Source: Callorhinchus milii (taxonomy: Eukaryota). From it: a DNA stretch of 64,000 nt. The DNA lies in the NCBI RefSeq assembly GCF_018977255.1, contig NW_024704742.1:80664001-80728000 (forward strand), written 5' to 3'. Shown in pieces: positions 10,151 through 56,478 of this stretch. The notes under the pieces were generated by a model that was given only the letters and a program-made list of their open reading frames with translations, was not told where the DNA came from and made no database searches. Position numbers and translations under genes: made by a program. Position 1 is the first letter of the stretch; the number at the start of each line of letters is the position of its first letter.

Positions 10151-10154
10151 AAAC

Positions 10155-15731: not shown

Positions 15732-16139
15732 ATTTGCATTTATATAGCACCTTCCACGTCATAAAATCCCATAGCACTTAACATTGCTACCTGGGCACTC
15801 AAACTTGGGGTGTTAGCCTACAAGATCTACAGTACCTTGGCTTCTGTCAATCCCAATCGGATGTTTGTTCCATGTGCAGTTTATTCCATTTTTTGGGCTT
15901 ATGGAAACAGACTGCTCCTTGGCTGTTGACTGGACCCTTTTCAAATGATGTTCGAACACAGTATCCTATCTTCCTCCACCATAATCTAAAAATACTGGAA
16001 GCACAAAAAATATCTTTAAAAATATATCTATTAATATTTACAAACATATATGAAAAAACCTTAAATATATACTCCCAGTAGTAAACGGATGGCAGAGATT
16101 CTTCACACTCAGTTCATTGCAGTCTTATCTGGTAGCGTT

Positions 16140-16455
16140 GTCCTAGCTGGAAAGGCACTGGGAAAACTTGCCAAAACATGCTTTCAATGGCAAGCTTTAG
16201 AATTTTAGCTGGTTAAATTCCAGCAACTTTCCCCAAGGCAACGTTCACAAGCGTTGTCTCTTGCCAGACTGCACCTAATACTCTGTCCCTCCATGGAGAA
16301 AGTGAGTCCCTCCAGGGAGAGACTGATGTGCATTTCATTCCAATACAAAAGAGTTTCCATGTGGAGGTGGGATACACGGAACTCTCAGTCTGGTCGGGAT
16401 ACTCTTAAGCATGGTGATGGTTTTCTGCAGGTGTCAGACAACAGGCTGAAAAAAG
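16140..16455 (+). mobile_element. Putative 3' UTR of the unclassified non-LTR family
   Basis: CAATGGCAAGCT..TTTTAGCTGGTTAAATTCCAG..TCCCTCCAGGGA..ATACTCTTAA..GGCTGAAAAAA is shared with the copies near 34887, 39798 and 43610. Confidence 0.75.
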
Positions 16456-21476: not shown

Positions 21477-21787
21477 GTGGAGTCCTGTTGCTCAGTGGTT
21501 AGAGAACTCACTTTGCAAGTGAGAGGCCTGAGTTCAATTCCAGGCAGGGCGAAACCTTGGGCAAGTTTCCTTACTCCACACACCTAATAATAATACCTCA
21601 AAAAAAACCCAATAATAAATCGGTCTTTTTCAATGACTGTTTGTGGGACATTGCTGTGCGCAATTGGCTGCCGGGTTCGCCCACAAATATACAGTCAATT
21701 TACTTTACAGTATATTCTGTGAAGCGCTTTGGGTCGTCTAGAAGACGTGAAAAGCGCTATATCAAATGCAAGGATTATTATTATTAT
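21477..21787 (+). mobile_element. Full-length tRNA-Ala-derived SINE
   Basis: A and B boxes, TGC anticodon loop, L2-type stem-loop, (ATT)n tail. Confidence 0.93.
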
Positions 21788-23166
21788 CTCTTTCCTTCCC
21801 ATTATTTGGTGGTCTCTATAGTATAACCCTACCAGCTTTACAGCTCCTTTTTTGTAGTGGAATTTGCTCCCCCGTATTGATCTGTGTGGTGAAAATTGGC
21901 TTCCAGCTGAGTCTGGCATGTTCAACAGTCAGTTGCCTGACTAACAGTTTGCTGGCTTATGGCTGCTGGACTGCTTTGAACTTCAGTGGCTGAATCTGCT
22001 CCTCATTAGCTACATATGATTCAGATCTGAATGATCTGTGCACCACCCAGCTTTAGACATGCTACAGTACTTACAAGCTTTGTCTGAAAATCAAAGCACC
22101 TGAACAGCAGTCTGACATTCCGGGGGGTCCAACCATGTACGACAATTTTGGTTTAAAAGACTAAGGTTGTGCAGAGTTTACGGCAAATTCTTAAATTTTC
22201 TCTTAGTTTGTAATGTGGTTTCTAGTCAGTTTTAAAATTATGACTGAATTTAAATTCTACACAATCTTAAATTTTAAGGTCTTACAGCCTAAGACAAGAT
22301 GAAATTTTTGGTTGCACATACTGCTGACAGTGTTAATAACAACTGTTAAACAATTGGTTCCCTTCTTCATTGTTTTCTCCAAATCGTTATTTCTGCTTCC
22401 TCTCCCCTCAGCATTTTTATGTACAAATATCATCTACATGTTACCTTTTATTGATGTTGCATCATGGTTGTGTCTCTGTGACCCAGACTGAGTCATTGCA
22501 TGTCACAAGCAATGTCTGTGAACTGTGAGCATCGATTGATGTGAAAATCTTTGTCTGGCAAAGGAGCTGGGTTTCAGCAGGCAGTCACATTTCATCAATG
22601 AAGATAACTTAAGGTAATTATCATTGGAAAGATTAAATATTTAAGCTGAGCTGTGACAAGTGGCCAGAAAAGATAATTCACCATTGATCATCTAAGAATA
22701 AGTTAATTTGAGCCAGTGGGTTACACATTATATGCAAGAAAGCATACATTACATTGGTAAAAAAATTATATCTAAGCTTAATTCAATGTCCCCCAAATGG
22801 AATTTGTAACATTCTACATGTTTTGTTTAAGATACTAAGGAGTTGAACTTCTGTGCACTACATAGCAAATCTGAATTTAGATTTGAAAGATTGGCCGTGT
22901 AATTTGGAAAGTGCATAAAGATAGGATAGTTAAATTTACATTGCTGCGGGCTGTTTGAACAGGTTTTGCAGAGTTATAGTTGTGCTGTCAAACCATAGGA
23001 AATGGCCTCAGATTTGCACCTATTCAGGGACACATTTAATTGCATAGAAAATAATTTTACATTGAGAGCAACATAGACGATGTATAAAGATGTCTATTTG
23101 AAACAGCATAGAATGAACATTGACTTGGTAGTGGTTATTTATGGACTGGATAAAGTTGACTTGTGA

Positions 23167-27109: not shown

Positions 27110-28875
27110 ATGTCACCAAGGGGGAGTCGAAGAACAACCCCAGGCTACTGTTTTCTACCACATCCCGACTCCTACATCCCCCCCGCCACCCCGCACAGGT
27201 CATCTCCTCCAACCTTCACTGCGAGGAGATGCTGGATTTCCTTGAATCCAAAATCAAGGGAATTCGCTTCACGGTCACTTCCCCTCCAACATCCACCCAC
27301 CCCCACCCCCTCCCTCCCACACTCCAACTCCTACCCATCCTCCCCTACACACTTTTGTACCCGTTTCCCCATCCTCTGTCACCAAACTCATCCTATCCCT
27401 GAAACCCACCACCTGCTCCCTTGACCCCATCTCCACTCCACTCCTTATCTCCCAGCTCCACCTCCTTGCCCCACATATCACAGACATCGTCAACCTGTCC
27501 CTCTCCTCTGGCTCCATTCCCATTCCCTTAAAAACTGCCACCATCACTCCCACCTTGAAAAAACCCTCCCTTGATGCATCGCAGCTATCAAGCTACCGAC
27601 CCATCTCCAACCTCCCCTTCCTGTCCAAGGTCCTCGAAACAGTTGTCGCCTCCCAGCTGTGCTCTTTCCTCTCCACCCATTCACTATTCGAAACCCTTCA
27701 GTCGGGTTTCCGTGCTGCCCATAGCACAGAAACTGCCCTGGTCAAGGTCACCAATGACATCCTGACCATCTGTGACCAGGGCTCCCTCTGCCTCCTCGTC
27801 CTCCTCGACCTAACGGCAGCATTCGATACGGTCGACCATGCTATCCTCCTCCACCGCTTGTCCTCCCACCTCAACCTTCAAGGCACTGTCCTTGAGTGGT
27901 TTAGGTCGGACCTCTCCCACCGTCTTCACTATGTTTCCATAAATGGCTTTTCCTCCACCCCCCGCACTTTCTTATGCGGTGTCCCTCAGGGCTCTGTCCT
28001 CGGTCCCCTCCGTTTCACCCTCTACATGCTCCCCCTTGGTGACATCATCCACAGACATGTGGTTAACTTCCACATGTATGCGGATGACACCCAACTCTAC
28101 CTTTCCTCCTCTACCCTGTTTGACCCTGTGCTGTCCTTTCTCCCTCACATCCGCACCACAATTGGCACTGCCTTCCATCACCTCCGGAATATCGCCAGAC
28201 TACGGCACTACCTCACCCCTCACGCTGCTGAAACTCTGGTCCATGCCTTTATCACCTCAAGGCTGGACTATGGGAACTCTCTCCTCGCCGGCCTTCCCGC
28301 CACCTCCCTCCACAAGCTGCAGGTCATTCAGAACTCTGCAGCTCGTGTACTGTCCCGCACCAGGCTTCGGGACCACATCACTCCCACCCTCGCTCGCTTC
28401 CACTGGCTCCCCATCCCCCAGAGGATCGATTTCAAGATCCTCATCCTCACCTACAAGGCCATTCACGGCCTTGCTCCCTCCTACCTCTCCGATCTACTAT
28501 CCCCCTACCTACCTGCCCTCACCCTCCGTTCCTCTGGCTCCGGTCTGCTCCACATCCCCCGCCCCAACCGCCCTACCATCGGTGGCCGGGCCTTCAGCCT
28601 CTCAGCCCCTAGGCTTTGGAACTCTATACCCCAGTACCTTCGCCGCCTCCTCCCTTTCCTCCTTCAAGGCCGGTCTCAAGACCTTTCTCTTTGACCGTGC
28701 CTTCGGCTCCCCTCTCGACTCTCTACCCCCTCCTCGCTCCCTCCCTTCCCTCCCCTCACCCTGACCATTTCCCCCCTGTTCGGGTCCTGACCCAACTGTA
28801 CAGTGCCTTGGGCCTTGGGACGTCCTCCCGACGTGAAAGGCGCTCTATAAATGGAATGTTGTTGTTGTTGTTGTT
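27110..28875 (+). mobile_element. Young L2 with a 379-aa open RT frame (27555-28694) and an in-frame internal deletion
   Basis: [54 protein letters not shown] joined directly to LFDP; intact tail. Confidence 0.97.
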
Positions 28876-29159
28876 AATGGAATACCTGTCACCTTTATCC
28901 CTATTATTTCCTCATGTGGTTTGTCTTCCCCTTCGAATGGCCACATTAGTATCATTTCTTTGCTTGATCCCCACACAAGTTTTTTTTTACCCGCTTCAGC
29001 AATTTGTTCTCAGCTGGAAGACCACTTCTGCACTTATGCATAGAATCTGTTTGTGTCCGTCAGTAATGGGATCCATTCAGAATCATTTACTTGGAAGAGA
29101 ATGTCAGTCACCTCTGCACTGGTCTCCGAATATAAAGTTATGAATTTGTCATTATTCTA

Positions 29160-32643: not shown

Positions 32644-32950
32644 AATAATAATAATAATCTTTGCATTTGATATAGCGCTTTTCACATCTTCAAAGCGCTT
32701 CACAGAATAGACTGTAAAGTGAATTAACTGTAAACTTGTGGGCGAAATGCGGCAGCCAATTGTGCACAGCAGTGTCCCACAAACAGTTGTGGATTGAAAT
32801 GACCAATTCATTATTGTTTTTTATCTTTAGGGATTATTATCAGGCGTGTGGAGTTAGGAAACTTGCCCAAGGTTTCACCCTGCTGGGAATCGAACCCAGG
32901 TCTCTCACTTGCAAAGTGAGTGCTCTAACCACTGAGCTACAGGACTCCAC
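32644..32950 (-). mobile_element. Full-length tRNA-Ala-derived SINE
   Basis: B box GGTTCGATTCC; same family as 4081-4393. Confidence 0.93.
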
Positions 32951-34886
32951 ATAGTGATGATCTCCAAACAACAACAACAAGATTTCATTTATAGAGCGCC
33001 TTTCATGTTGGGAGGACGTCCCAAAGCACTGGACAGTTGGGTCAAACACCAGCTCGTTGTCTTTTGTAATGTTCTATATTCACTAACTATGACAGAGCCT
33101 TAATATATTGCAATGTGCCATCTTCAAAAAAGTAACCTGAAAACCATTGATTGAAGAACTATGATCATCTCCCCTTTCTTCACGGCATCAAAGCTCCTCC
33201 ATTGTTAAGTGCACCGAGACACTACCCCTTGAAGGGCGATATAAATGCAGGTTGTTGTTATGCAATCTTAAATTTCTTTAATCAACATCTAGCATGAATC
33301 CCAATTCAGTGATAGATGGTTATCACTTTTTCAAAGTAACTTTATTATGTATTTTCAAAACTTGGGGATGATACCGTTAATTACATTAGCTGAGCTGAGA
33401 GGTTTTGGAGAACATTTACCCATAGCTCCATTGCCCCTTCAGTATCTCCAGAATTGCTTCCTTTGCATTTCTTTATCTCAAGTCGTCCCTACCTTCAGCA
33501 TAGATGATAGATTAGGTTTCTGATACTCATCACTCGCGGTCTTACAACTACAATATTTTTCCAAAGTCGCATTAAAGAAGGAAGATGGGCCCCACACAGT
33601 TTGGAGTTTCTTGTCCTATTTGTGCTGCTCTCCCTCTACAACTGAAGAGAGAGAGAAGCATTAAGCTCATTGATTTATTCATGGTTCAGAATCTGTCTTG
33701 CTGTGTCCTCTCTTTAATCTTAATTACCTATTCTATGGCATTAGTTTGTATTACGCAGGCTTTGTTCTTTGATCATCATAGACAAGTTCACTCATCACCC
33801 TGCACAGGGCAGAATTTTCACATCACTAATTAGTCTGACTGCATCTTTAATCTGAGAAAAGGTTAGCATTTGTGGTGGTTCTGAACTAATGCTTGCATTA
33901 AACTTCCCTCACCAAGTGGCAGCACACTCCCCCTGGTAATGACTTAATCAATACCAGATCCAAAACCAAACATTTCATATTAATAATCCTTTCATTTGAT
34001 ATAATGTCTTATGATGTCATAGAGACTTCACAAAGTGCTGCATCGGATATATTATAAAACGTGGTGTGACTGTGTATTTTGTGGGCAAACAATTTTGTTG
34101 TTAAAATTTGAAGCAAGGTATTTTTGTTTTGCTGTCATGTGCCTTAGAGGGGCTGCTAAATTGTCTCTTTTGTTTCATATTTAATTCTGCTGCTTGATCA
34201 GCCAAGGTGAGGTGAAATCCCAACTCTCCCCCTCAACATATATTACAATTTTGGCAATCAGCCTAGCCTGCTCAATTGTGTATTTTTGGCTGGGCAGAGA
34301 GAAAGAAAAGATTTCTACCCCTCCTCCACAGATCAAGTTTAGAAATAAATATTAAACAGAAAAAAACTCTAGTCAATTTTTTTTAAATCCTCGCTTAAAA
34401 TGTTTGCAAATGGCAAATGATGTATCTGAAAAGGAGGAAACCACTTGCATGGAGGGACACCATGCCACATTCTGGGCAATTATATTTAACACTGACAGGA
34501 GATAAGAAACCCTGAAAATTTTACACCTATATCAAACTTGCAAGTGTGGCATTTTTATTAGCTGCAGATCTGGGTTGGTGCTGCAATGTGTAGATACCAT
34601 ACTTTAGATTTGAAGTTAAACTGAAGTCCTGTCTACCTATCCAAGAGGATGATAAAGAGCCCCTGACACTATTTGGAACAAGACATGAGTTTCTTTGGTG
34701 TTCTGGCCAACAATCCCTCAAATAAAACTTGATTATTCGACAACAACAAGTTACATTTATATAGAGCCCATCATCCAGTTCTGGAATGCCTAAGTGTGGC
34801 AGAACCTGACACTGAGCTGGGGGGATAGGGGAAGTGACTGTAGGTACTGTCGAAAAGGAAGGTCTTCAGGTATTATCCGGGGAATT

Positions 34887-35135
34887 ATTTTTTAGTCAGT
34901 TGGGTGTCATGTGTGGAAACCCATCATCATACTTAAGAGTATCCAAACAAAACAATTCCAAGCATCCCACATACACATGGAAATTCACGAGATAAATTGT
35001 TGGAATGGAATGTGGATCTCTCCCTGGAGGGATGCATCCTGCTTACCTAATTTGGAATGTATTAGGTTGGCAAGAGTGTGCGTTGGGGTACTGCTGGAGT
35101 CTAACCAGATAAAACTGCATAGCTTTCCATTGATA
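34887..35135 (-). mobile_element. Putative 3' UTR of the unclassified non-LTR family
   Basis: Colinear with 39798-40085; ends GACACCCAACTGACTAAAAA on the minus strand. Confidence 0.8.
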
Positions 35136-35580
35136 GCACTGTCTGAAAATAGGGAAGTAGGGGGCAATGCAGAGGGACTGAGGGAGAGTGTTCCAAAATT
35201 TCAGAGCAAAATGAATGAAAGCCACCCATGGCGGACAGGAGGGGATGAAGCATAAGCAGGAGACCAGTCAGCTGAGTAGAAGAGGTGAGCTGTGAAATGG
35301 GAAGTGAACAAGCTTAAGAGGTAGGAAGGTCCAGGGGATGACGGGATTTGTACACAAGCGTGAGGATCTTGAAGCCAATCCATTCTATGTTAGGGAACTA
35401 ATGGAGCCTGGCAAAAACTGATGTGATTGGGGTACACAGTTTAGTGCAGTTGAGTAGATGGGTGAGAGAGTTTTTAATTAGTTAGATGTTGTGAACAGTG
35501 GAGCTGGGGAGACTGGCAAGGAGAGCATTGGAATAATCAAAGCAGGAGATGACGAAAGCGTGGATGAGGGTTTCAGCTAA
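35135..35580 (-). mobile_element. Old L2 3' fragment
   Basis: ETLIHAFVIS..DYSNALL, DWLQD, FWNTLPQSL homology. Confidence 0.75.
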
Positions 35581-37090: not shown

Positions 37091-39019
37091 GTTGGCCAGG
37101 ACATCAAGAGAAACTCCCTTTGCTACTCTAATGCATATCTTTCCATTGTAATATTACTGGGGGGAATATGCAACATAACACTATGTGTCCTGAAAATATA
37201 CAGAGCTTGTCAGCCCAGAGCAATAGAAGCTTCTGTAGAACTGACACCAATTTAGAGTTAATGATATTTTACATATCTCTTGTATCTGTTGGCAACTGCT
37301 TGATAAAATGATGGGATGAAAAATGTGACATTTTGCAACAGAATCATTCCAATAAGTGTGGCATTTTTCACATTGATAAATAATACATAGAAGTTCTTAA
37401 AGAAATAAAAGAATTTCATGCAGCAAAAAGTTAATTTCAGTGCAAGGGAATCCAAAGCTCAAATTCCCTGTTTTTATTTTCATTGGTGAAACTATTTGTA
37501 TTCAGGTTCAAAGTAGAGATGAATGATTCTTCAATTTTGGCAAGGCTGAAATAAAAATAACTTGTCTTGAAGTTGATTTTTGTCAGCTCAGTGTGCACAG
37601 AATTATAGGTTCAATTCCCAAAAGGCAGGTTACTCTTTAGACAAGAATAAGACCAACAAACAAAATCTTGATATTTCTTAACAAAAAAAATTATTTCCTT
37701 CATTAAAAGATGTAGAAGATGAATAACAGATGCTTTTAATTACTTCTGCAGTGACAGTCTCTAAGGATTAACTGTACAAGGTAATGGATGTTCGTGCCCC
37801 AGAAATGTTTTATTGGGCTGTGACTCAATGGTTTTCATCGCACAGTTGGATAGGGACAGGCTATACGTCATCCTTAGGCCAAGAGTGAGTGTCGATATAG
37901 TGGAACACTCTCAGCAGAACTACTAATGTTCTCCAGTCATGTATTGTGGTACGGTATGATCACAATTTTTGGACAGGTCTAACTTAAAATACCTTTAAAA
38001 TAATTTGTTGGAATGCAACAACAACAATTTATATTTTGTGGTGCATTCATATTGGGGGAAAACAATCTCAGGGCAATTTACACAGACTGGGCAGGAGTCC
38101 AAGCTGGAAGGGAGCACGGAGGAGGAATAAGGCTAAAAATACAGGCAAAGCTAGGTCAAAGCAAAGTTGAAAAAAAAAGACACACTTGTTTTTCTATTAA
38201 TCTTGTTTTCAAAAAAAATAGCATTGGGAAGGTGTTAAAGTTGATACTAGGGAGGATACTTGTGGCCAGGACATTGGACTCATTTAAAAAGCAGCTTGGT
38301 ACTATGATGGGATGGTAGGGTGGGTGTTCTGGAAGGATTGAGATCAGATGGGCCAAAGAGACTTCTTCACCCAAACCAATCTTGTGATCTTGTGACCCCC
38401 TTGGAACTTTACTCAGACATCCAATCCAAGATAAGCAGCTCAGTGGAATTCCAGCAGGTCGGCTATGATAAATTCTCCAATTTGCGATTTGCAAATAATT
38501 TTGTGAATCTTGCATTTAGACTTCATTGCAATACTGCTCATTTCAATGAAAATTTATATTTCTTGTCACTCACACGAGCTAATGAAAATGAATAACATAG
38601 CACGTTTCTACAAGGCTTGTGGAAATAGCATTGGATGCAGAGAGGGGAGTGATGAATACATTGGGGTCTAATTTGTAGGTTGTGTTAACAACGTGTAAAC
38701 ACGTGTACAGAAATGCAGTAATTATATAATTAAGAAAACACTGGAAAAGATTATAGGTGATATCATTTTTAATTGTAGGCAACTGAAAATCCTTTTATAT
38801 GCATTCATAAGTGGAGGGGTTTATCCCAGTGTCCTGGCCAATAATCCCCCAAATAATAAAATAATAATAATCCTTGCATTTGATATAGCACTTTTCACGT
38901 ATTCTAGATATCTCAAAGATATCTCAAGACATTGTCATACATAATTCCAACAGTCTGGTGGTCCTCAGACAATACAATAGTCCAGGAAATCAAATAAACT
39001 TCTACCTTAGACAGAGGTT

Positions 39020-39610
39020 AAAGGTTTTCTGCATATGGTCCAGCTGTTGGAAATTTGTTTCTGTACCCAACAGCAAAACTCCAAATGAACAAATTAATTG
39101 GTACCTGAATCCAATTGAATAGTGCCTTATTCACACTTCCAAACACTAAACTGAGCTTCCTAGATTCTACAATAAAAAGGGTTCCGAGCAGCCACTCACA
39201 GGATGGAGCGTTCACAAAGCCCGACACTACCTTATGAACCTTATCACCTCTCACCCATTGTAGCTGTCAGATGAGAAGCTGCATGAACAAAGCTGTAGGC
39301 ACATTGACTAAAGCCAGATTTTATTTTATACAGAGGCAACTTCTGAAGAGCAGTGTCAGAACATTTGAGGCTTTCCAAGGTGGCAATCACTAACGATTCC
39401 AAAATATCAGTTGAAAGCTTGAGAGTCTCCTCAGTAATTAGGAACATGGCTGTCAAAACTGCTGCCACTTGTTCTCTCTGAGGATTGAAACTCCACTTAA
39501 TTTTAGCCCATAACACCATTTGGTTTTTCAAACAGACTTGTGGAAAGTTCTTGTGTTCATCATTTTTTAGTAGGTGATAACCTGGAAGCCTTTTTACTCC
39601 CCACAATCCT
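39020..39610 (-). mobile_element. Possible decayed hAT transposase core
   Basis: YHLLKNDE..KNQMVL..EETLK..KIKSGFSQCAYSFVHAASH/QLQWV resembles FSLxxDE..KEQMVL..IK....AxFVHCxxHxLQL. Confidence 0.4.
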
Positions 39611-39797
39611 TAAAAAGAAACCAGCTTCCAAATTAATACTGAATGTAAGAATTTTCCACCATTCTGTGTGATCTTAAATTTTCAGATCAAATGGTCTTAC
39701 AGGTAACAGTCAGTGAAACTTTAGCCTTCCCCTGCTGTGTTAGCAAAAAAAATGTGGTTCTATTATAGAAGTCACCATGTTGTGTGCTGTGCTGTAC

Positions 39798-40905
39798 TTT
39801 TTTTCTGGTCAGCCGGGTGTCTGACACATGTGGAAATCCATCACCATAATTAAGAGTATGCAAACCAAGCTAAGATTTCCATGCATCTCAAATGCACATG
39901 GAAATCCCAGAGATAGATTATTTGAATGGATGCGCACTCTGTCCCTGGAGGGATACATTCTGCTTACCTAATTCCTGGAAAGTATTAAGCACAGGTTGGC
40001 AAGAGTTAAGGCTTGGGGGCCCCAGAGTGTGTGTTGGGGTACTACTGGAGTTTAACCAACTAAAACCATATAGCTTGCCAATGGCTAGTGGTGGATAATA
40101 GGTACAATGAACTCCCTGCGCGCTTCCCAGTGGGCAACACATCTCAGCATGAAATTCGTGAGAGCATTGCCACCATTTTCCTGCCCGCAGCTCGGGCACA
40201 CATCGCTTCCCAGTGAGCAATGGTTCCACCAATTAGAGGTGCGGAGTTTTAGCAGCAGCTGTTTGCCTCTCTGCAGGCCAACCAAGATAGATTCCAGGCA
40301 CTGGACGTACAAATATGTGTTCACAAACTCGGACTCCAGGTAACTCATTCCAGCTTTCTGTCACCCCAAGCCTCAGTGTTTCCTCATCAACTATCTGGTG
40401 GGCATCTGCCTTCAGCATGGTGGGCAGACTTTTATAGGACAGCTTGTGATGTGCCAGCCACCTTGACGTTCTTGAGGTCCAAGTCCAATGCCTTGTACCA
40501 GACTTACTCAGCACCAGCTGCTCAATCCAGGACCTCATGTGAGGGGCCTTGGCAAATAGACGTGCTGGCTGTGAAATCGACTCTGCCTCCAGGGTGCTTA
40601 GTGACAGGTCAGTGTAGGCTGGAGCCCTCCCTCTCCTGCAACCGCTTCCCGTGTTTGCCACAAATCCTCCTCGCTGCTTGATCTTGCACTTTGCAGATGG
40701 TTCGGAGGAAGTCTCTTCGCTGCATCCCCAGGAGCTCAGATAGGTAAAGGAGAACTGTTTACACACAGATCTTGTATGAGACAAGCTTGACCTGCTTTGA
40801 GACCTTGTTGTCCTTGAAGAGGGAGGAACATAACCAAAGTGCCCTTCACCCCTTCTCAGCACAGACCTTCAGGAAAGTGTCTCGGCTGATGTTGGTGTCC
40901 AACTG
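39798..40905 (-). mobile_element. Non-LTR retrotransposon 3' portion, neither L2 nor CR1 (RTEX-like?)
   Basis: LDTNIS..KG*RAL..VKLVSYK..V*TVLLYLSELLG..KVQDQAARRICG; ARLFAKAPHMRSWIEQL..TWTSRTSRWL; LLKLRT..CPSC..LTNFMLRC..WEARR; then a 3' UTR and A-tract. Confidence 0.8.
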
Positions 40906-42636
40906 TGCTGGTTGAATTGTTGAGAAGAATTAGCACAGGTTTATATTATTGGTGTTTGATTGTGGGTGCTGTAAGCTGTATGTAAGTCTGAATTCAAGTC
41001 ACTGCCACTTATCGGTGCTCCTCGCATAAAATGTCATGAAAGTATAAAACAGATTGACTTTACAAGTCAATAGTTTATTGATGAGTTCAAATTAGCAATA
41101 ACTAAACAATTGTTAAATAAGAATATTAAAGGTTATGGAGATAAGCAGATAAATAGTATTAAAGTTTGATCGACTTAATGGAGGAAAAACCTACTCAAGA
41201 ATCAAAGAACATACCTAAGAAGTTATAAAGACCCCAGTACAATTTTTTTTACAAAAATTGTTAATTATATACCTGGCAGAGTAGAAATGCAGTGTATATG
41301 ATTGACAATATATTGTGAGTGTTCCAACACTTTTTGTAGGTGAACCTATTGAAAAGGAAAAAATGAATGCTAGAAAGTGGAAATGAAACCAAAAAAGATT
41401 TTTTATCTGTGTGGAAAAGGCAGCAGAATTGGGCTAAATAGATAACTTTTGCAGAGAGCCAGCACAGACTCAAGCAGCCAAATGGTCTATTCTATGGTCT
41501 CCTTCTGTATTCTAGTTCTATTGACAGGAGGTTGATTAACATCTGAAAACAGTAGGTTAACATTTTGGAGCTATGAAAGGTGTTCGGGTACTATACAAGG
41601 AAGAATGAACATTTCTAGCACAACAAAATACTCATCTCAAATTGGAGACTGTGCTCTCAGTTTTCTATCCCCTGAAGTGGCCGGAAAGTATGCTAATTTT
41701 ATCAAAAATGTAGATGTGCATAAGAAATTCCAACATATTGAGAGCTCCTAGCTATTTGACAAATTATCCATCTTCAAAGCTACGTCTAAGCATTATTACT
41801 TTGCATAAACCCAAAGTGACAATCTTGAACCAAAAAGGAGGAAAGCACATTATAACAATAATCTTACCATCTCACATCACAGCATCAAGCTGCTTTTTAA
41901 ATAATTCTAGTGCCCTGGTCTCAATCACATTTCCTGGCACCCTGTTCCATCCGTTTATCCATTTGCTTAAAGAAAAAACTTCCTGGTGTTGGTGCTGAAA
42001 TTGTCCTTTGCAACTCTAAACCCATTGAACTGGGTTTACTTTTTCAATTCCATTTAAAATAATGACACAATCACTAGCATGTACCTAAATTCACCCTCAC
42101 ATCTTTGACATGATTTACAGTATATGCAAATGATTTCAGCCTATCTTTAATATGTTGAGGAACATTTGTCTTTCTCAGTTAATGGGCTATGGTGGTTTTA
42201 ACAAAAGTACGTACACTTCCAATCGTGATGGCCTCTTTTCCCAGTATGCTCCAAGGTAGTTTAAGCTCCAGGGGCAGTATTTCATTTCAAATTGTGTAGC
42301 ATTTGACTCGAGTTTATAGCATTTCAGTTGATATTATTGCTCAAATAAAATGTATTAGCCTTTTCTGTCTTAAAAAAAACATCTAAAGAAGTGACCGTGA
42401 GCTCTGACCTTTTCATTCAGCCACACAATCTCTTTCAAGGCAGATTGAGTGTCCTAAACAGGATTGAGATACAATCACATCCCGGAAGTTCTTTGGAAAT
42501 CACCAGGCAAGGATAAGATATCCACTCATACTATTGTGCTGGAAATTTAGAATAAAACAAGGTTACTTCATACAGCAATCTCATTTCGTGTAAAACACAT
42601 ACTGAACATAATATTAATATAACACTAATAATAATA

Positions 42637-42893
42637 ATTCCAGGCAGGGCGAAACTTTGGGCAAGTTTCTTTATTCCAGACACCTAATAATAATCCCTCC
42701 AAAAAACAAAACAATAATAAATTGGTCATTTTCGATCCACGACTGTTTGTGGGACACTGCTGTGCGCAATTGGCTGCCGCATTTCGCCTGCAAATATGCA
42801 GTCAATTCACTTTACAGCATATTCTGTGAAGTGCTTTGAGACGTCTAGAAGATGTGAAAAGCGCTATATCAAATGCAAGACTTATTATTATTA
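42637..42893 (+). mobile_element. 5'-truncated tRNA-Ala SINE
   Basis: Starts within the B box (ATTCCAGGCAGGGCGAAAC); intact tail. Confidence 0.9.
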
Positions 42894-42917
42894 ATAATGT
42901 TATTAAAAATTATACAT

Positions 42918-43290
42918 TCATTTGATATAACATCTTTCACAGAGAGAGGATGTTTCAAAGCATATCACAGAATAATACTCTAAAACGTGACTGTGACTGC
43001 GTATTTTTGTAAGCGAACACAGTAGCCAACTTACATACAGCCATGACCCACAAACAGTACATACAGCCATGAAGTGAATGATAAATTTTATTTGGAAGAC
43101 TGTTGGCCAGGACACCAGGAAAAACTCCCTTCTCAAGATCAGTGTTTAACATCACTTAACATCTCCTAACAGCACTTCCACCAATGGAGCACTGCACTTG
43201 CGAGTCAGTCTAGAGTTCAAAGTCCTGACTTGCAGTTTGAACCTACAACCTTTTAACTCAGAGGTGAAAGTGCTATAAACTGAGCCGTTG
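42918..43290 (-). mobile_element. Deu-domain SINE
   Basis: TTGGCCAGGACACCAGG core; GAACCTACAACC..ACTCAGAGGTG..CTGAGCC head. Confidence 0.75.
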
Positions 43291-43609
43291 CACTCAATTC
43301 GGTATCCCATGAGGTGACACTCAACTATAATATTTCATAGAGACTTGATAGTGCACACTGTCCTTTCACCTTTGGACAGTTTTAATTCCATGAGATAAAG
43401 GCTAAAGTGATTAAGATTTGTTCCCTCTGTTGGCTCAGGAAATCCTACATGAAATAAGTTTGGCAGTCTGAACTAATGTTTCTATTGAGTGTGAATGCAG
43501 AGCAAGCAAATTGATGCCAATTGGAAATTTCATATTGGAACTTCAGGGAATTCTCTTCTTAAACTTAATTGTTTAGACAGAGTAAAAGGGAACCATGGCT
43601 CTCCATCTG

Positions 43610-43860
43610 GCTTGTGCCAAACAAGCAGTGGGAAGCTTGCCAGAAAGGGCTCTCAATGGCAAGTTGTGCGGTTTTAGCTAGTTAAACTCTAGACAATGCA
43701 CACTCAAGACTTGGCTCATGCCAACCTGTACTTAATGCTCTCCAGAATTTGGTACATGGGGTGAATCCTTCCATGCATTCCATTCACAAAACAGGGAAAT
43801 TTCCATGTGTAGGTGGCATACATATGTGGTCTGCTCCGGGACATACATACATATGTGATC
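43610..43860 (+). mobile_element. Putative 3' UTR of the unclassified non-LTR family
   Basis: GCAGTGGGAAGCTTGCC..CAATGGCAAG..TTTTAGCTAGTTAAACTC..TGCCAACCTGTACTTAAT. Confidence 0.7.
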
Positions 43861-44496
43861 AAGCGCTCCAGAGTGCTAACCCTTGTGAAGGGCACAATAT
43901 AAATGCAAATTGACGTTGTTGCTTTGGATGCATACCTGACTGAACCAAGAAAAATCTGTTTGCGCTGCATTTATCAGCACACACCAGGATGATACTGGGT
44001 GAGAAAAGTAAAAAATATGTTTTATTCCCAGCATTGACACTTCTCGCACTGAGCGTAAAACCTGACAAGAAAATTAGCCAGATTAGCCTTTTTTTAGAAA
44101 ACAAAATATTTCAGAACAGCAAAGTGAGTCATAAAGTGTGCAATTTTTGCCTCCTGGGAAAAATGAGTAATGTTTCTACCAAAGACGGTGTTAATGAGTC
44201 CAATGGCCTAATTAGCAGATGTTGAGGAAACAGTAAATGCCTGAGGGATAGAAAGAGGAAAAGGGGGAAGTTCTATGTATTCCAATCAGTTCCCATATCA
44301 GAGTAGAATAGTTTACTTTGTTGCCCTTGAGAATAAGCCACCATGCAAGGTGACTGTTCAAAAAATTTGCAGTGGGTGGACACATGCTTCTAAGTGAGTG
44401 ACTGGCTGACTGGACTCGATATCCCTTCTACCTTGTTTGTGGAATATTGCTCTTTGCAAATTGGCAGCTGCATTCACCCACTCATGCACAAAAATA

Positions 44497-45722
44497 AATA
44501 GAAACATAGAAATCTATCGAGCAGAAGGAGGCCGTTTGGCACATCAATCCTGCACCGGCTCACAGAGCAAGGAGATCACTTCAATCCCACCTCACCGTCA
44601 TATCCCCATACCTCTTCAAGCCCCTCTCTTTCATATGCCTGTCTGCTACCCTCTTGAAAGCCATAATGGACTCCACCTCCACCATCCTATTGAGCAGGGA
44701 GTTCCACACCCCAACAATTCTCTAGGTTGGGGGTCACCTCCCCACCCTCTACCCCATGCACCCCCACCCAGGTCAGAGTCAGGCTCGACCACTATTAAGC
44801 ACTCTGAGATGCTACCCTGCGTGGAGGGTGCTGTATAAGTGCAAGTTGTTGTTATAGGTAAAAAAATCCTTCTAAGTTCTTCTTTTACTGTTCTTATTGT
44901 TATCTTGTAACTATGTCCCCTAGTTACTGACTCTCCTATCAATGGAAATAACGTCTCCCTTTTTTCCCCAACAATACCCCTTACAATTTTGTATACCTTC
45001 TCTGCTCCAATTAAAACAGACAACAACAACAACAACTTGGATTTATATAGCGCCCTCCATGCTGGATGGCATCTCAGAGAGCTTCAAGACCCTTCCTGTC
45101 TCTCCAATCCTTCTTCATTACCACAGCCCTTCATTCCAAAATCATTTCCATAAACCTCCTCTGTCCCCCTTCTAAGGCTTTCACATCTTTTCAGAAGTCA
45201 GGTGTCCAGAACTGAATGTAATGCTCCAGTTGCAGCTTAACCAATGATTAATACAAAGAGTATTGTTGCTTTACTTTTGTACTCTATGTTCCTGTGTATG
45301 AAACACAGCATACTTTAAGCTTTCTTTGCAGCCTTTGTCATTTGTGATGCCAATGATCTAGGTACCTGGACTCCCAAATCCCTTTAGTCCTTGCCTCCTT
45401 GCAAGATACTGCCATTCAGCATATATTGCCTTCCCTCATTTTTCCTACTAAAATGAATCTCCTCACATTTCCCTTCATTGAACTTAATTTGTCACTGATC
45501 AGCCAATCGCACTCATCTGCTTAAATACTCTTGCAGTCTCTTGCCATCCTAGCTTGGTATTTGAAAACTTTGATAACATAACCTCTACATCCAAGTCAAG
45601 GTCATTAACGTATATAGAACAGAGGCGAGGCCCCAAGACATATTCTGGGCACGCCACAACCTTCCTCCAAATGGAAAAACAGCCCTCTTTGCTTTCTAGC
45701 CTTCAACCACCCTTCAATCCAA
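44497..45722 (-). mobile_element. Degraded CR1 with nested short L2 tails
   Basis: TAGAAACATAGAAA tail; VTRGHSYK and WLKARKQR homology. Confidence 0.8.
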
Positions 45723-46070
45723 GCTAACAACAACAATAACAATGCAATTATATTTGCAAAGTGCCTTTCACATCGGGAGGACTTACCAAGGTGCTGAACA
45801 TTGATGGATCGGACAAGCCACCCCATTTCCCTATTCCATGTGTCTCAATAACAACAACAAAATTACATTTGTATAGTGCCTTTCATATTGGGAGGATGTC
45901 CCAAGGCACTGGACAGTCAGGGTTTTGGACCCCAGCTGGGGGTTGGGATTGGGGAGGGTGAAGGGCATGTGGTGAAGCAAGATGATCGAAAGCATGGTTG
46001 AAGAGGAGGGTCTGCACTGCATTGGAGTCTCAGCACAGTTAGTGAGTGCAAAGTTCTAATGTGGGGTTTT

Positions 46071-46850
46071 AACAATAACAACAACAAAATTATACTTGTA
46101 AAGCGCCTTTCGCATCAGGAGGATGTCCCAAGGAGCTGGATAGACAGAGTCACGGACACGAGCTGGGGGTCAGGGTGGGGAAAGGTGGAGGCAGATGGAG
46201 AAGCAGGAAGATAGAAAGCATGGTCGAAGAGGAGGGGCTTGAGATGGGTCTTGAAGAAGGCAAGGGAAGGGACAAGCCGGAGGGACTGCAGGATGGAGTT
46301 CCAGCAGGTGTGGGCAGAGTGGCAGAAGCCCCACCCACCGATTATGGGAACATGAAGCAGGCCGGAGCCCGCTGAGCGGAGGGAACGAGCAGGATGGTAG
46401 GGGGTTAGGAGGTCGCAGAGCTAGGTGGGAGCAAGACCATGAAGGGCTTTGAAAGTGAGGAACAGGATCTTGAACTGTATGCTCTGTGTCATGGGAAGCC
46501 AATGGAGTCAGGTGAGGATGGGGGTGATAGGGTCATGGAGACTGGTGCGGAAGAGGACCTGGGATGCAGAGTTCTGGATGATCTGCAGTCTATGGAAGGA
46601 GAAGTTGGGGAGACCGACAAGCAAGGAGTTTGCATAGTCAAGCCTTAATGTAATGAATGTATGTATGAATGTTTCGGCGACCTGCGATGTAGAGTCGAGC
46701 GATGTTTCGAAGGTGGGGGAAGGCAGAGGGGATCATGGCGCAGATGTGGGGTAGAAAGGATAGTTGAGGGTCAGATAAGTCACCAAGGTTCTGGACTGGC
46801 TTAGAAAGGTGGAGTGTTCATTCATGGATGGTGATGCTATCAGTGCCTGA
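46071..46850 (-). mobile_element. L2 3' fragment
   Basis: ORF2 C-terminal homology plus stem-loop tail. Confidence 0.9.
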
Positions 46851-49747
46851 CAGCTTAAGTTTCTTCACCAATCTTCCATGCAGCACTTTATTAAATGATT
46901 CTTTGCCTTAATCTACATTTGCAGTTACTACTTCAAAGCACTATATTAAATTGGTGAATTAAATTACTCAAACAAGATCTGTCCTTCTCATGCTAGTCAC
47001 TACACTTCATAGTAAAATCCTGTGAAACACTTTGAGACGTCTCAGCAACATGATAATGTGGTATATCGAGATGCAAGGTTTATTTATAATTGTTACATCT
47101 AAGCAATGCCCCATATAAGAAGCCTGCTGTTTGTAACTGAAGTAAACACTTGGAGCATATCTCTTTCTTTAACCTCAGTCATAAGGATAGAATGTGTTGC
47201 TCCACTTTCACTGCCACCTTACTCTAAAGTCTAGACCATCCTCTGGTGACTAATGGCTGTAAAAATGGGCCTTGGGATAAATTAAAATGCAATAGCAATA
47301 GAAACTTAGAAGTATAGGATTATTTCTGCACATTTGCCCATCATGACTGTGTCACCCCTTCTATCCAAATCACCACCTTTCCCTGTTCCATGTTTCTTAA
47401 GTTTCTTCACCAATCTTCCAAGGGGCATCTTATCAAATGCTTTTTGGAAATCCAAATATACATCCATATAGTATTGCTGTGATTTACATTTGCTGTTACT
47501 ACTTCATAGAACTATATTAAATTGGTCAATTAAATTGCTCCAACAAGATTTGTTTTTTTCTATGTTGCCCTTTACCAACAGGAAATATTTGCCTTCACAT
47601 AGAGTCCTTCTCAAAGCTCTGCACAAAGACAGGGGCTGATATTGAGCAAGGGAGGAGGGGGAGAAGGGAGGAGATCACAGCTGTGGTCGAAGATATAGGC
47701 TTTTAGGTAGGAATTAAAGACAGAGAGGGGATGAGGTTTAAGGATAGAGAGAAGGAGTTCTAGAGATTAACATCATAGATGCTGTATTGTAGATTCCATT
47801 TCCAGCCTCTTCCGCATACCTCTTAAGCATTTTTTTTGATGTTCAGCTGCACATTGTGTTGCCCTTTTGAATGATTCTACTGACCAGCCTTGATAGCCAA
47901 TCTTGGTAACACGCCTAATTGTGTTGCTGTACAAAGAAAAGCAGTGCATGGATAACCTGTTTCAGGAGGTAATGTTGTGAATTATCCAAGCTACACACAG
48001 TCAAGTAGTTTGTGTTGTTGCATAACTTCATCATTATAGTCATAATCCCTGCATTTGATATAGTACCATTGGAACGTCATTGAAATGTCTGAAGTGCTTT
48101 ACAGGAATTATCGTAGATTGTAATAACTGTATATTTGTAGGATAGTGTTGTCCAATAGAAACCACACTGACTAGTCACAGTTGTGACTAGGTTGACACCA
48201 TTTTAGCTACAATGCACTGATTTTAGTAGTAAATGCCTTTCATGCACTCACCCAATACAGGTAAACCTACTTTGTTTGTATGTTTACATGTATATTTACT
48301 TAACAAACATCTACTTCACAAACATCTACCGTCATTCAGTGGGAAGCTAAGCAAACTTCTCTTTATTTTTCTTTCGCATGACTCGCCAGACTCACCCTTG
48401 CTCTCCATCCAGAACTCAGTTGGATATTGTTTTCCATTTGCCATGACATGTCCTGTCCTATTGGAGTTGATCATTGTTGGCTGGGCTTAATGTATTCTGC
48501 TGGCCTGGAGTGGTTATTCAGATTGGTCTACCTGACCACAATGGACAGCTCCCCTCTCCATACAATATTGCTGGTGTTTCCATGGTGCTGAAATCCAAGT
48601 TTTCACCTGTGTTATGAATTATTTTAGCAATTAACCAATAAGCAATAACCAAGGAGTTAAAGCACACACAATGATCCCAAAACACTCATACACACTGATT
48701 TTCCTCTTACCATTTTACCAACAAAAACACAAAAAGGTCAAAGTGCACATGCATACGCTGTACGAATATAAGTATTGAGATTGCATGCACATCGATAGTG
48801 TCTATTACACATTTTTCAGTTACACATTAACAACACAATTTCACCACATTTGGATCCCCAGTTCCCACATGTTAGTGGCTAACATATTCACAACAATCCT
48901 GTTGTAGGAGAATTCAGCAGTCAATTTTCACAGACCAATGTCCCATAAACTTGAAGCAAGTGATCAATTTTAACTGGGGGGATTGCTGGCCGGGACATCA
49001 GGAGAAACTCAGGGAGGTCTTTAATGTTGAACCTGAACAGGCAGAGAGAATTTCAGGAGGTCTCATCAGGTTTCACCTCCAACAATGAGGCAAACCTCTA
49101 GGATTGCATTACAGTGTCAGCCTGGGGTGTGTAAACTAGAAATCCTGATATTGCCTCTTGAAGAGAGGTGCTCTTCCTGTCTATCCTAACCCATGGTAAA
49201 ATGAATGAGTAGATGTGAGGTTCTTCCATGTGTGAATGAGCCTGAATGGTATGATGATTTGCAAATCCCTGAAATTAACACAACTGGCATGTAATATCCT
49301 AAAAATCACATTTCATTCACAATTGAATTTTTGAGACGATACGGTTCGTGCACAAAGATGATGTGTAGTGTAATGATAGTGACTCCTTTCTCCTAATACA
49401 ATTTTTTGTTGAGTGTAACTTTTCTCACAGTTTCTCTGAACGTGCTCATCTGTGTGTGACCAAGTTATCCCCTGAAGCCTTCATGATGAAACTGGAATCC
49501 ATGGGAGTACATGACCAAATGTTGGATTTTATGTGGAATGTTTATTCCAGCTCCAAGATCTGGGAAAAGGTTGACACCCAAGGGCGGGGGTGGGGGGGTG
49601 AAGCAATGTTGGCTATTGTAACTTACCCTAATAGATGTATTCACAAATATATAGTCAATTCACTTTACACTTTATTCTGTGAAGTGCTTTGAGATGTCGA
49701 GAAGACGTGAAAAGCACTATATCAAATGTAATGATCATTATTATTAT

Positions 49748-50130
49748 AATGACTTGTTGGATGGCACTGAGTGGGATGGAATTTGTATATCTGCGCCAGG
49801 TCTTCTAACAGGATTGTGGCATATCTGTTTGCGGATGATATTGTGCTGCTGGTGAACTCATCTGGGGACCTTCTGCACTCCACCCAACATATTAAACATT
49901 GGGCCAACTGGCCAATTTGTAAAGTCCAAATCAAGCAGTGAGGTGGAGTTGTGGCAAACACGGGAAGCAGCGGCAGGGAGGGAGGGCTCTGGCCGATACT
50001 GACCTGTCACTAAGCACCTTGGGCGTGGAGGCAGCTTCACACAGGCAGGTCTATTTGCCAAGTCCCCTCACATGACGACTTGGATTAAGCAGCTGGTGCT
50101 TAATAAGTCTGGTACATGACATTAGACTTT
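49748..50130 (+). mobile_element. RT-core fragment of the unclassified non-LTR family
   Basis: NDLLDG..APGL/SNRIVAYLFADDIVLLVNSSGDL..IKHWANW, followed by DNA matching 40480-40700 in inverted orientation. Confidence 0.85.
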
Positions 50131-50294
50131 AATTAGTACTTAAACCAACCGATGAGTAGAAATTCCATCTGAGTTTAAATTCACTCTATGTTTAAATGAA
50201 TATAGCATTTCAGATAATGCAAAATTTGGTTATTTCTTAAATTCTCTGATATGTGTTTTCTGCAGTTCTGCAGTTCTTAGAGAATTTACAGAAA

Positions 50295-51490
50295 ATAATA
50301 ATCCTTGCATTTCAATATATGGCCTTATCACATTGTCAAAGCATCTGAAATCACTTCACAGGATATACCGCAAAGTATAGTGACTATGTATTTTGTGGGC
50401 GAATGCAGCAGAAAAATTGTGGACAGCAATGTCCCACAAACTACCATGGAGTGAGTGACCAATTTTATTTAGGGGGTTGTTGGACACCAGAAGAAATTCC
50501 TTTCACTTCTCAACTAGTTCTATAGAATCTTTCACATCCACCTATACAGGCAGATGGGATTTTGTTTTAACATCACATTTCAAGAATGGTACCTACAACA
50601 ATGACTGTGCGAGTTTCAAGCCTGGAGATGGGGCTTGAACCCACAACAACAACAACAACAACAAGATTCCATTTATTAAGCGCCTTTCATGTCGGGAGGA
50701 CGTCCCAAGGCGCTGTACAGTTGGGTCAGGACCCGAGCATTGGGGGAAATGGTCAGGGTGAGGGGAGGAAAGGGAGGGAGCGAGGAGGGGGTAGAGAGTC
50801 GACAGGGGAGCTGAAGGCACGGTCAAAGAGAAAGGTCTTGAGACCGGCCTTGAAGGAGGAAAGAGAGGAGGCGGCGAAGGAACTCGGGGATAGAGTTCCA
50901 GAGCCTGGGGGCTGAGAGGCTGAAGGCCCGGCCACCGATGGTAGGGCGGTTGGGGCGGGGGATGTGGAGTAGACCGGAGCCAAAGGAACGGAGGGTACGG
51001 GCAGGTAGGTAGGGGGATAGTAAGTCGGAGAGGTAGGAGGGAGCAAGGCCGTGAATGGCCTTGTAGGTGAGGGTGAGGATCTTGAATTCGATCCTCTGGG
51101 GGATGGGGAGCCAGTGGAGGCGAGCGAGGGTGGGAGTGATGTGTTCCCGAAGCCTGGTGCGGGACAGTACACGAGCTGCAGAGTTCTGAATGACCTGCAG
51201 CTTGTGGAAAGAGGTGCCGGGAAGGCCGGCGAGGAGAGAGTTCCCGTAGTCCAGCTTTGAGGTGATAAAGGCGTGGACCAGAGTTTCAGCAGCGTGAGGG
51301 GTGAGGTAGTGCCGTAGACTGGCGATATTCCAGAGGTGATGGAAGGTGGTGCCAGTTGTGGCGCGGATATGAGGGAGAAAGGACAGCTCAGGGTCGAACA
51401 GAACGCCGGGGTTCCTGACTGGCTTTGAGAGGTTTAGAGTGCAACCCACAACTCTGACTCAGAGGTAAGAGTGCGACCAACTGAGCCTGA
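50295..51490 (-). mobile_element. Deu-domain SINE split by an L2 insertion
   Basis: SINE head continues across the L2: GGGCTTGAACCCACAAC ... AACCCACAACTCTGACTCAGAGG. Confidence 0.8.
50648..51442 (-). mobile_element. Young L2 3' fragment with 10-bp TSD
   Basis: 208-aa open frame; AACCCACAAC at 50638-50647 and 51443-51452. Confidence 0.96.
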
Positions 51491-55044: not shown

Positions 55045-55415
55045 GTCAGCCTGGCTTAATGGTCAGTAAGGTTGTAGGTTCAAGCCTTTTCTGTGCTGAC
55101 AGTCCAGTGCAGTGCTGGGGATGTGCTGCATTATTGGAGGTGCCGACTTTTGGATGAAACATTAAGCAAGGTCTTGGCTGAGTGTTCAGGTGGACTTTGA
55201 CGATCTCTTGACAGTATTCAAAAAGAGAAGGGAATTTCTCCCAGTATTCTGGCTAACAATCCCCCAAATAAAACTAATTATTGACTTCATCCTTGCAAAT
55301 TGGCTGCCAAATTCACCTATAAATACATAGTCACTACACCTCACAGTAAATCAGGGAAAGTACTTCGAGACATCTTTCCAATGTGAGAGCACTATATCAA
55401 ATGCAAAGATTATTC
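55045..55415 (+). mobile_element. Deu-domain SINE
   Basis: GGTTGTAGGTTCAAG head; TTGGAGGTGCCGACTTTTGGATGAAACATTAA core; tail. Confidence 0.75.
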
Positions 55416-56326
55416 TGTCTAGCAAGCTTTCCCACTGCTTGTCTAGCTAGGCCTACTCTACCCATTAGGCTTTGGCTTTCAGGCTTAAAAGGAGCGGAGT
55501 GGGATCACTCGCTGCCTCCAGTGACTGGTCTACTCTTCCAGATCCTGCTGATGAGCAATGCTGGCTGTGCTATCATCAGCAGTGCCCTGGAATACTTTGG
55601 ATCCACTTGGCCAGGAACTGCACTTCACAGAGGGCTCTGACGCGATTCCAACATTCCGTTGCCAGAACTCATTTAACTCTCTCCCCCCCTCCCCCCGCCC
55701 GCCCCCCCCCCCGGAGGATATGCAAAGATTATTATTATCACTACATTACTCATTACTACCTTCTACCATTGCTGTTTATAAGGCTTCATCACGCTGCTAT
55801 CCTGTTATTTGAATAGCTTCAATTTCCAGAATTAAACCATTGACTCAAACAAGCTCTCCATTCCTCAAAGTTAAGGTTCAGAATGAAACACTGTCAGTTT
55901 TTGTTGCCTGATTACGTTAATCTGTAAAATTCTTACCTTTACATTTGGTTAAAAAATTGCCCATTTTATTGTTCATAAAACATTGTAGAGATTTACCCAC
56001 CCTTACTGATCAATTCCCTGTGGACAAGGAAACATTCTTAGCTAGTTTGAATTCTTTACTTATCACTGCCTCTTTGGGTAAAAACATATTCGCCTGAAAA
56101 TGCACAGTCACTGCACTAACAGTAAATCCTGTTAAGTGCTTTGCGATGTCCTTCCAATGCGAAAGGCACTATACCAAATGCAAAGATTATTATTAATCCC
56201 ATTCCTTGCGGTATCAATACCACATATAGAAGAAACTCTTCAGTTTTAGATTTGATGTTCTGGTGTTGATGTTAGGTGACAAAATGCAGAAATGCTGACA
56301 TCTCACACCCCTCACCCTGATAAGTG

Positions 56327-56478
56327 CAAAATATATCAAAGAAACTTTAAATATAAAGGATGACCTCAGCATAACTGAGGATAACCTTAAAAAAACAAAT
56401 AACTACAAAACATATCAAAGAAAATATAAATGTAAAGGACGACCTCAGTATAACTGAGGATAACCTTAATAAAACAAT
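56327..56478. repeat. 79-bp tandem duplication containing a hairpin
   Basis: CCTCAG-YATAA-CTGAGG at 56364 and 56443; the flanks are duplicated with the same period. Confidence 0.9.

Follow-up and report, generated by a model that had tools for sequence, protein, structure and literature searches.

In the window, the whole 64-kb stretch of DNA that was analyzed, L2, CR1 and SINEs predominate. On the minus strand, between positions 40902 and 39795, lies a single, decayed copy of a non-LTR retrotransposon that is truncated at its 5' end. From its 5' end, the copy comprises the end of the reverse transcriptase (RT) palm and the thumb, then a linker and a zinc finger of the form CX2CX10(N)X4C; it closes with an A7 tail, and its target-site duplication measures 8 bp.

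The ORF2 part of the copy is read in three minus-strand frames. Frame A (40636..40902), delineated by alignments with the environmental protein P0003 and its locus L001, covers the palm end and the thumb and has two in-frame stops. Frame B (40356..40634), defined by its phmmer matches P0002-P0004, is the post-thumb region with the block RLFAKA..WI..L / WT..SRTSRW, and would occupy a wrist-like position. Frame C (40085..40354), aligned with P0002, is the C-terminal region, with the zinc finger at 40198-40139 and the first stop at 40087-40085. A 3' terminal segment (39805..40083, minus strand), probably the 3' UTR, is 70-72% identical to three other copies in the window. It is followed by a short A-rich tail, A7 plus GTA (39795..39804, minus strand), within which contigs end at 39798/39799.

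Boundaries of the insertion

The 5' copy of the target-site duplication (CAGCACAG; 40903..40910, minus strand) adjoins the first homologous codon, and the same eight bases are repeated at 39787..39794 (minus strand) as the 3' copy. The probability of such an 8-mer pairing by chance is 0.00065, as estimated from 20,000 random draws. The homology with L001 begins at 40902, flush with the duplication, and the depth of the contigs of sequencing runs aligned to the window is down to the single-copy level past about 40925. At the opposite end, 393 contigs of run X1 at 39798 and 261 at 39799 end in unrelated A/T-rich sequence. Two other copies in the window have the same 3' end position and A-rich tails. 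The GC content is about 0.50-0.55 across the coding part, as against 0.28-0.37 in the flanks. The duplication at the homology boundaries, the common A-rich 3' end and the fall of depth from 3' to 5' together identify a LINE insertion.

The copy is thus very probably a dead, 5'-truncated member of an autonomous LINE-type family that is neither L2 nor CR1 and has an RT-thumb-CCHC organization with an RTE/RTEX-like motif grammar. Longer copies would be expected to encode an AP-type endonuclease upstream of the RT.

Several features of the neighborhood are separate from the element. A short repeat at 39600-39700, downstream of it, has an X1 depth of about 8,000-9,000 (10 in unique sequence) and relatives at 62076-62238 and 22182-22223. 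A 121-codon open stretch with a protein-like end (REQVAAVLTAMFLITEETLKLSTDILESLVIATLESLKCSD...) is located at 39247-39609 on the minus strand, the same strand as the element, and may include an exon of the host. Another possible host exon is a 110-codon open stretch at 62946-63275 (plus strand) that is rich in lysine and glutamate. At 56320-56477 an AT-rich unit of 79 bases occurs twice in tandem, with 88% identity between the copies.

The three frames and their protein relatives

All of the peptides quoted in the sequence-only reading are present on the minus strand, in the order given there, across the three frames. Frame A contains VKLVSYK (40791-40771), VLLYLSELLG (40755-40726) and KVQDQAARRICG (40692-40657). 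Frame B contains ARLFAKAPHMRSWIEQL (40565-40515) and TWTSRTSRWL (40484-40455), and frame C contains LLKLRT (40255-40238), CPSC (40198-40187), TNFMLRC (40159-40139) and WEARR (40129-40115). Among the 40 of 265 rows listed, other copies of the family are one base shorter at 40634 (28 contigs of X1, 30 of X2 and 12 of X10) and at 40355-40357 (11-13 contigs of X1). The two extra bases, missing from other copies, sit exactly at the frame changes, showing that a single reading frame underlies all three. Most of the other copies, among the same 40 of 265 rows, have YG ahead of SELLG (places 40742-40744).

The C-terminal finger had been written as CPSC-x8-TNFMLRC. The finger is present, with a different spacing: nine residues separate the two parts, and the motif is CX2CX10NX4C. 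The codon of its asparagine (place 40156) is a His codon in about 90% of the depth in three runs. A 17-base direct repeat (16 of 17 bases; 40204-40220 and 40121-40137) flanks the finger inside the element; its E value is 1.2 and it may be due to chance.

Frame B was used as the query of an exhaustive phmmer search of 1.84 billion representative proteins, with matches accepted up to E 0.001. Three proteins were matched, all of them singletons without a useful name: P0002 (394 residues, 47% identity, E 1e-19), P0003 (209 residues, 42%, E 6e-12) and P0004 (113 residues, 47%, E 2e-11). P0002 is a UniParc entry, P0003 comes from JGI/IMG and P0004 from a soil catalogue. P0003, which had been retrieved by frame B alone, also matches frame A (42% over 52 residues, E 3e-11), and the start of frame C is 44% identical to P0003/L001 over 32 residues. 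L001, on contig Ga0007824_1030401, aligns with frame A from 40902 (37.5% over 88 residues) and with frame B (46% over 67 residues), and frames A and B combined reach E 8e-34. Its scores were equaled by none of 300 shuffles for frame A, none of 300 for frame B and one of 300 for frame C. Just upstream of the match, L001 has an RT palm end (W..RW.M.I...KC, then YLGV.LD). P0003/L001 and P0004 are thus colinear with the element, at 37-47% identity, from the palm end through the thumb and the post-thumb block into the beginning of the C-terminal region; they differ from it in that neither extends to the zinc finger, and neither has a taxon.

P0002 matches frame C at 47% identity over 68 residues, with the finger in its His form, and appears to be a gene model of the host into which a degraded member of the family has been drawn. 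Its N-terminal part presumably resembles MTCH2. The last 170 residues are a decayed family copy read partly out of frame, probably a mis-predicted exon.

That unrelated frames were joined by chance, or that the locus is the remnant of a host gene, would agree with the lack of a Pfam, PDB-sequence or confident fold match. Both are refuted by the colinearity of one independent protein with all three frames and by the thousands of dispersed copies, the target-site duplication and the A-tail.

Evidence for reverse transcriptase

A fragment at 49752..49914 on the plus strand carries an RT catalytic motif, LFADDIVLL, with a G.I..PG..I lead-in. It matches Pfam RVT_1 at E 0.008 and 16.3 bits, below the cut-off of 29.6 bits. 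The fragment is on the same strand as, and directly before, a further piece of the family at 49915..50129; from this adjacency, the two are read as a sister copy with an internal deletion, the fragment being its upstream portion. When compared with the palm fragment of L001, it aligned out of register and without significance, with 7 of 300 shuffles scoring as well. Together with the palm end of L001, the fragment gives the family a homology to RT that is weak by profile scores and consistent in the order of its parts.

No Pfam family reached its cut-off in the window segments, in P0002-P0004 or in L001; a match to zf-tcix was dismissed at E 0.19. Word-index protein searches yielded relatives among 0 of 116, 0 of 8,000 and 2 of 3,364 candidates, the last two being already in the query. 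In a search for related loci, the one hit among 133 stretches of metagenomes was the query's own contig, and there was none in viral contigs (0/3 and 0/27) or in prokaryote genomes (0/51 and 0/26). Sequence comparison with the PDB, the solved L1 ORF2p included, gave chance matches or none. Clusters of bacterial helix-turn-helix proteins in the ESM Atlas, which were returned for frame B (0.89-0.91, about 140 shared features), were rejected as chance.

The predicted structure of L001 is of low confidence (mean pLDDT 45). Telomerase thumbs were found with this model at Z scores of 7.4 (rmsd 3.9, 100 residues aligned), 7.2 and 6.5, tied with unrelated helical bundles. Foldseek gave no match at E 0.001 with the same model; L1 ORF2p and R2 are absent among the 50 matches listed from a wider search, which does not speak against either.

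Distinction from the L2 and CR1 elements of the window

The element had been described as having no DNA similarity to the local L2/CR1 copies, and the comparison bears this out: for all five stretches, no blastn match was better than E 0.18 and no tblastx match better than E 0.01. The best protein score against local L2/CR1 was 37, equaled by 6 of 300 shuffles, compared with 162-180 for L001. The CCHC pattern occurs in none of the four local L2/CR1 C-termini tested, whereas the family of the element has the finger. L2 and CR1 thus share with the element the non-LTR class, the window and an RT of the FADD/YADD type, but differ in the lack of any DNA or protein similarity and, in the local copies, of a CCHC end. 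The protein relatives and these tests support the reading of the element as a non-LTR retrotransposon that is distinct from L2 and CR1 and ends in a CCHC finger.

The window has young L2 copies at 27246-28876, 50640-51460 and 1035-1685 that are about 94% alike, one of them with a 482-codon open RT-thumb frame. SINEs at 21477-21787 and 32644-32950, with tRNA-Ala heads and L2-like tails, are 85-90% alike to a third at 4082-4394. The tRNA-Ala-headed SINEs resemble the CmiSINEs described for Callorhinchus milii in the available part of PMC5499810, which, with the prevalence of L2, CR1 and SINEs, points to a holocephalan host.

Other copies, abundance and age

Five further related pieces of the family, overlooked in the sequence-only reading, are present in the window, making six in 64 kb. 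The sister copy at 49915..50129 (plus strand) matches 40698-40481 at 83% over 219 columns (E 9e-56), with 21 transitions and 14 transversions. A 3'-end copy at 34885..35145 (minus strand, 72%) is inserted into an old L2 fragment, the flanks matching L2 copies. Two copies have an alternative upstream sequence: a 3'-end copy at 16131..16453 (plus strand, 70%) and a partial one at 43621..43822 (plus strand, 71% over 119 columns). At 55415..55462 (minus strand) the alternative upstream sequence is present by itself, cut by a SINE tail; it matches 16131-16171 at E 8e-5 and 43621-43647 at E 0.003. A profile of the family run against the six-frame translation of the window found only the main copy and the sister copy, both of which are related to the profile rows by construction or descent.

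Among public sequencing runs that share one organism label, contigs that fit the window piece at an identity of at least 80%, counted together with the separate repeat at 39600-39700, number 19,598 of 7,939,851 in X1, 18,061 of 7,138,061 in X2, 4,467 of 1,663,283 in X10 and 130 of 7,387,117 in X9. Run X9 was left aside as unfit for a DNA control, since G-to-A changes occur throughout its loose ends, as in a bisulfite-converted library. The X10 contigs, whose RNA nature is a guess, were left out as evidence of expression. No RNA run is among the runs listed as containing the DNA of the element. Most of the fitting contigs are less than 95% alike to the window copy.

The depth in X1 is about 82,000-102,000 near the 3' end, 10,000-14,000 at the zinc finger and 1,048 at 40824-40874, compared with 10.4 in the unique flank. 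This fall from 3' to 5' is as in truncated LINEs. Copy numbers derived from it are rough, as summed depth is not a copy number: about 100 at 40824-40874, 900-1,300 over the post-thumb block and the finger, 6,000-10,000 over 39855-40058 and 19,000 across the terminal 50 bases. The family would then roughly amount to 0.3% of a 1-Gb genome. CpG depletion in the element (0.29) equals that of the window at large (0.32), compared with 0.57 in a young L2. The family is therefore abundant and old. The word relict, which had been proposed for it, understates its abundance, since thousands of copies are indicated by contig depth.

These observations would fit a family that spread long ago in the host by target-primed reverse transcription. 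In such a process the ORF2 protein would have nicked the target and primed synthesis at the A-rich 3' end of its own RNA. About 1.1 kb would have been copied before synthesis stopped at the RT palm end, leaving the 8-bp duplication. Neutral decay may then have brought in the two single-base insertions, the two stops in the thumb and the loss of the His of the zinc finger.

The 3' end and the short form

At 40080 the depth steps up about eightfold toward the 3' end and is flat on either side, and the last 285 bases of the element are common to a short form that is about eightfold more abundant. At the same position 287 contigs of X1 leave the copy and enter one shared sequence (agreement 0.63), which matches the window copies at 16131, 35145, 43621 and 55462.

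It is an even question whether a longer 3' region is the normal state of the element, part of it having been lost here by a deletion at 40083/40084, and the short copies are ordinary 5'-truncated tails that stop within the missing stretch. The entry of the 287 contigs into one sequence that matches four window copies is in agreement with such a deletion. The four copies also seem to end at differing distances upstream (about 12, 35 and 55-105 bases), and one short copy has a perfect 10-bp hairpin. However, no joint links 40080 to the zinc-finger region among the best 15 of 545 joints, and none of the loose ends listed for the opposite side corresponds to it. The upstream parts of the short copies, moreover, have no significant homology to the coding region (at best, 22 of 500 shuffles scored as well); neither at the DNA nor at the protein level was a convincing match to it found.

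Alternatively, with a probability a little short of even, the last 285 bases are shared with a separate, non-autonomous SINE-like element that would be mobilized by the LINE through stringent recognition of its 3' tail. The eightfold step at 40080 with flat depth on both sides points this way, and a length difference of two versus three A residues in the shared upstream sequence, seen between runs and copies, argues against this sequence being coding. Sharing of tails between SINEs and LINEs is established, as set out in parts of PMC3747384 and PMC5499810. On the other hand, there is no tRNA head at the short copies, ARAGORN detecting only the tRNA-Ala heads at 21482 and 32946; no Rfam family matches within 39000-51000; and a common 5' end is not seen among the four copies. 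RNA folding gave no sign of special structure in the 3' segment (z -1.41, with 18 of 200 shuffles as good) or at 55415-55700 (z -0.11).

Vertical or horizontal origin

Horizontal acquisition had been offered as one explanation of the family, and it gained no positive support: the protein identity is 42-47%, there is no DNA similarity to the relative, and the relatives carry no taxon. A patchy distribution with best matches from outside the vertebrates had been named as a sign of such a transfer; the best non-host relatives are environmental proteins, one from JGI/IMG and one from a soil catalogue.

An ancient transfer into an ancestor of the host, from a microbial eukaryote or a parasite, is improbable. 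It would be in keeping with the fact that both of the best non-host relatives, at 42-47% identity, are environmental and that just one host-like gene model (P0002) was matched. Among the runs listed, DNA of the element is present under one organism label only (8 of 24 runs, two studies), as seen with a run index that finds near-identical DNA only. RTE-type LINEs are, in addition, those known to jump between species, according to the available text of PMC5381603. Against this, L001 and the window have no DNA similarity, no taxon is attached to the relatives, and protein libraries are poor in decayed animal transposon sequences. An identity of 42-47% between proteins is attainable by ancient vertical descent. 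The lack of DNA similarity to L001, together with the 37-47% protein identity, excludes a recent transfer from these relatives. Background on the transfer of LINEs is found in parts of PMC5381603, PMC4350176 and PMC4202319.

The locus alone is ordinary genomic debris. The genomes of cartilaginous fish are, however, described in the available parts of PMC5381603 and PMC6817897 as containing almost only L2, CR1 and SINEs, a gap that the family may fill: a third LINE that accounts for some tenths of a percent of the genome would be an additional lineage among the mobile elements of vertebrates. With relatives that are environmental rather than named animal elements, it would allow ancient loss to be weighed against transfer. 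The result would matter mainly to specialists in transposons, and only if an RT tree sets the family outside RTEX, Tx1, L1 and Vingi.

Comparison with known LINE clades

The LLYG.E..G thumb motif is diagnostic of the RTE group. Its letters are the majority at 40742-40744 (among the 40 of 265 rows listed), and P0003 has LLWGSEACG, which suggests an affinity of the family with this group. RTE proper (BovB-like) is without a C-terminal CCHC finger, so the CCHC end of the family argues against RTE proper. RTEX ends in such a finger, and in this respect the family fits RTEX.

Early-diverging fungal and microsporidian LINE ORF2 proteins presumably carry a block of comparable form, R..F.K...TWI..L / TW...T.RW, together with a CCHC finger and a lead-in reading PG..I..LLFADD, a resemblance to be taken as a lead. 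None of them was retrieved by the word-index or the exhaustive protein searches. Microsporidian LINEs are listed without clade in the available part of PMC4202319, and the open literature yielded no account of RTE-X in Mucoromycota.

The chances are even that the family is a divergent but true member of one of the CCHC-ended clades already named for vertebrates (RTEX, Tx1/L1 or Ingi/Vingi), vertically inherited and perhaps already in Repbase or Dfam. The accessible parts of PMC5753468, PMC7561263 and PMC9004415 document RTEX, Vingi and Tx1 from vertebrate genomes. Vertebrate RTEX includes the relics L4, L5 and ALINE and an RTEX of the anole. Since RTEX is already in vertebrates, the family would not be new to them if it is RTEX. 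The LLYGSE-type thumb points in the same direction, as do the neighbors of L001 in the ESM Atlas: unnamed clusters at 0.95-0.96, one of them mostly molluscan (0.95), and, at 0.85, a zf-RVT cluster from chordates, all to be taken as leads because the recognition value of 2228 is below the mark of 2300. Such membership is at odds with a post-thumb block that is unlike that of the gastropod sequences in the available part of the PMC11203168 supplement, and with the fact that no named vertebrate or invertebrate ORF2 was matched in the word-index or exhaustive protein searches.

The published composition of the elephant shark genome also stands against it, if this is the host. The table in the available part of the PMC6817897 supplement gives 0.006% RTE and 0.012% L1 and lists I, Jockey, Proto2 and Tad1 at 0; it is soft evidence, as the class columns look swapped in one sheet. 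The rough share of 0.3% is far above these RTE and L1 shares, and the family may therefore be unclassified or misfiled in that library. In the open literature, neither a LINE of RTEX-like type nor one gained by horizontal transfer is described for the elephant shark, a silence that does not by itself make the family uncatalogued.

That the family lies outside all clades named for vertebrates is possible but rather unlikely. Just as tentative is the fuller proposal of a lineage outside these clades, sister to or beyond RTE/RTEX and otherwise present only in microbial eukaryotes, that would persist in thousands of copies in a cartilaginous fish as a relic that other vertebrates have lost or through an ancient cross-kingdom transfer and would drive a short partner by way of the 285-base tail.

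Ingi elements have an RNase H and Vingi elements lack it. The distance of about 170 codons from thumb to finger would leave little room for this domain.

With L1/Tx1 the family has in common a CCHC finger after the RT, an A-rich tail, a short target-site duplication and heavy 5' truncation, features that are common to several clades. No zf-RVT Pfam match and no sequence match to the solved L1 ORF2p were obtained with it, the zf-RVT cluster of the ESM Atlas reaching only 0.85, and its thumb motif is probably not L1-like.

The ORF1 of RTEX often has an SGNH esterase, according to the available part of PMC3905857. LLYGSE and LFADD motifs are present in gastropod ORF2 alignments, unlabeled by clade, in the accessible part of the PMC11203168 supplement, and the thumb and the G.I..PG..I..LFADD lead-in of the family resemble the RTE-group sequences there. 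In these proteins the post-thumb region reads YGE.GRYPL..KYW.RL, in contrast to RLFAKA..WI..L / WT..SRTSRW in the family, and RTSRW has no occurrence in that part of the supplement. The YGE.GRYPL..KYW.RL block is absent from the window copy, from P0003 and from P0004.

This block is typical of animal RTEX without being its formal definition. The resemblance to RTEX that had been proposed in the sequence-only reading thus holds for the LLYGSE-type thumb and the CCHC finger, whereas membership does not follow, the post-thumb signature of animal RTEX being absent. With RTEX the family shares the LLYGSE-type thumb and the LFADD catalytic motif with its G.I..PG lead-in. Judged by its motifs, it would work like an RT-thumb-CCHC LINE that resembles RTEX, and is not filed here as RTEX.
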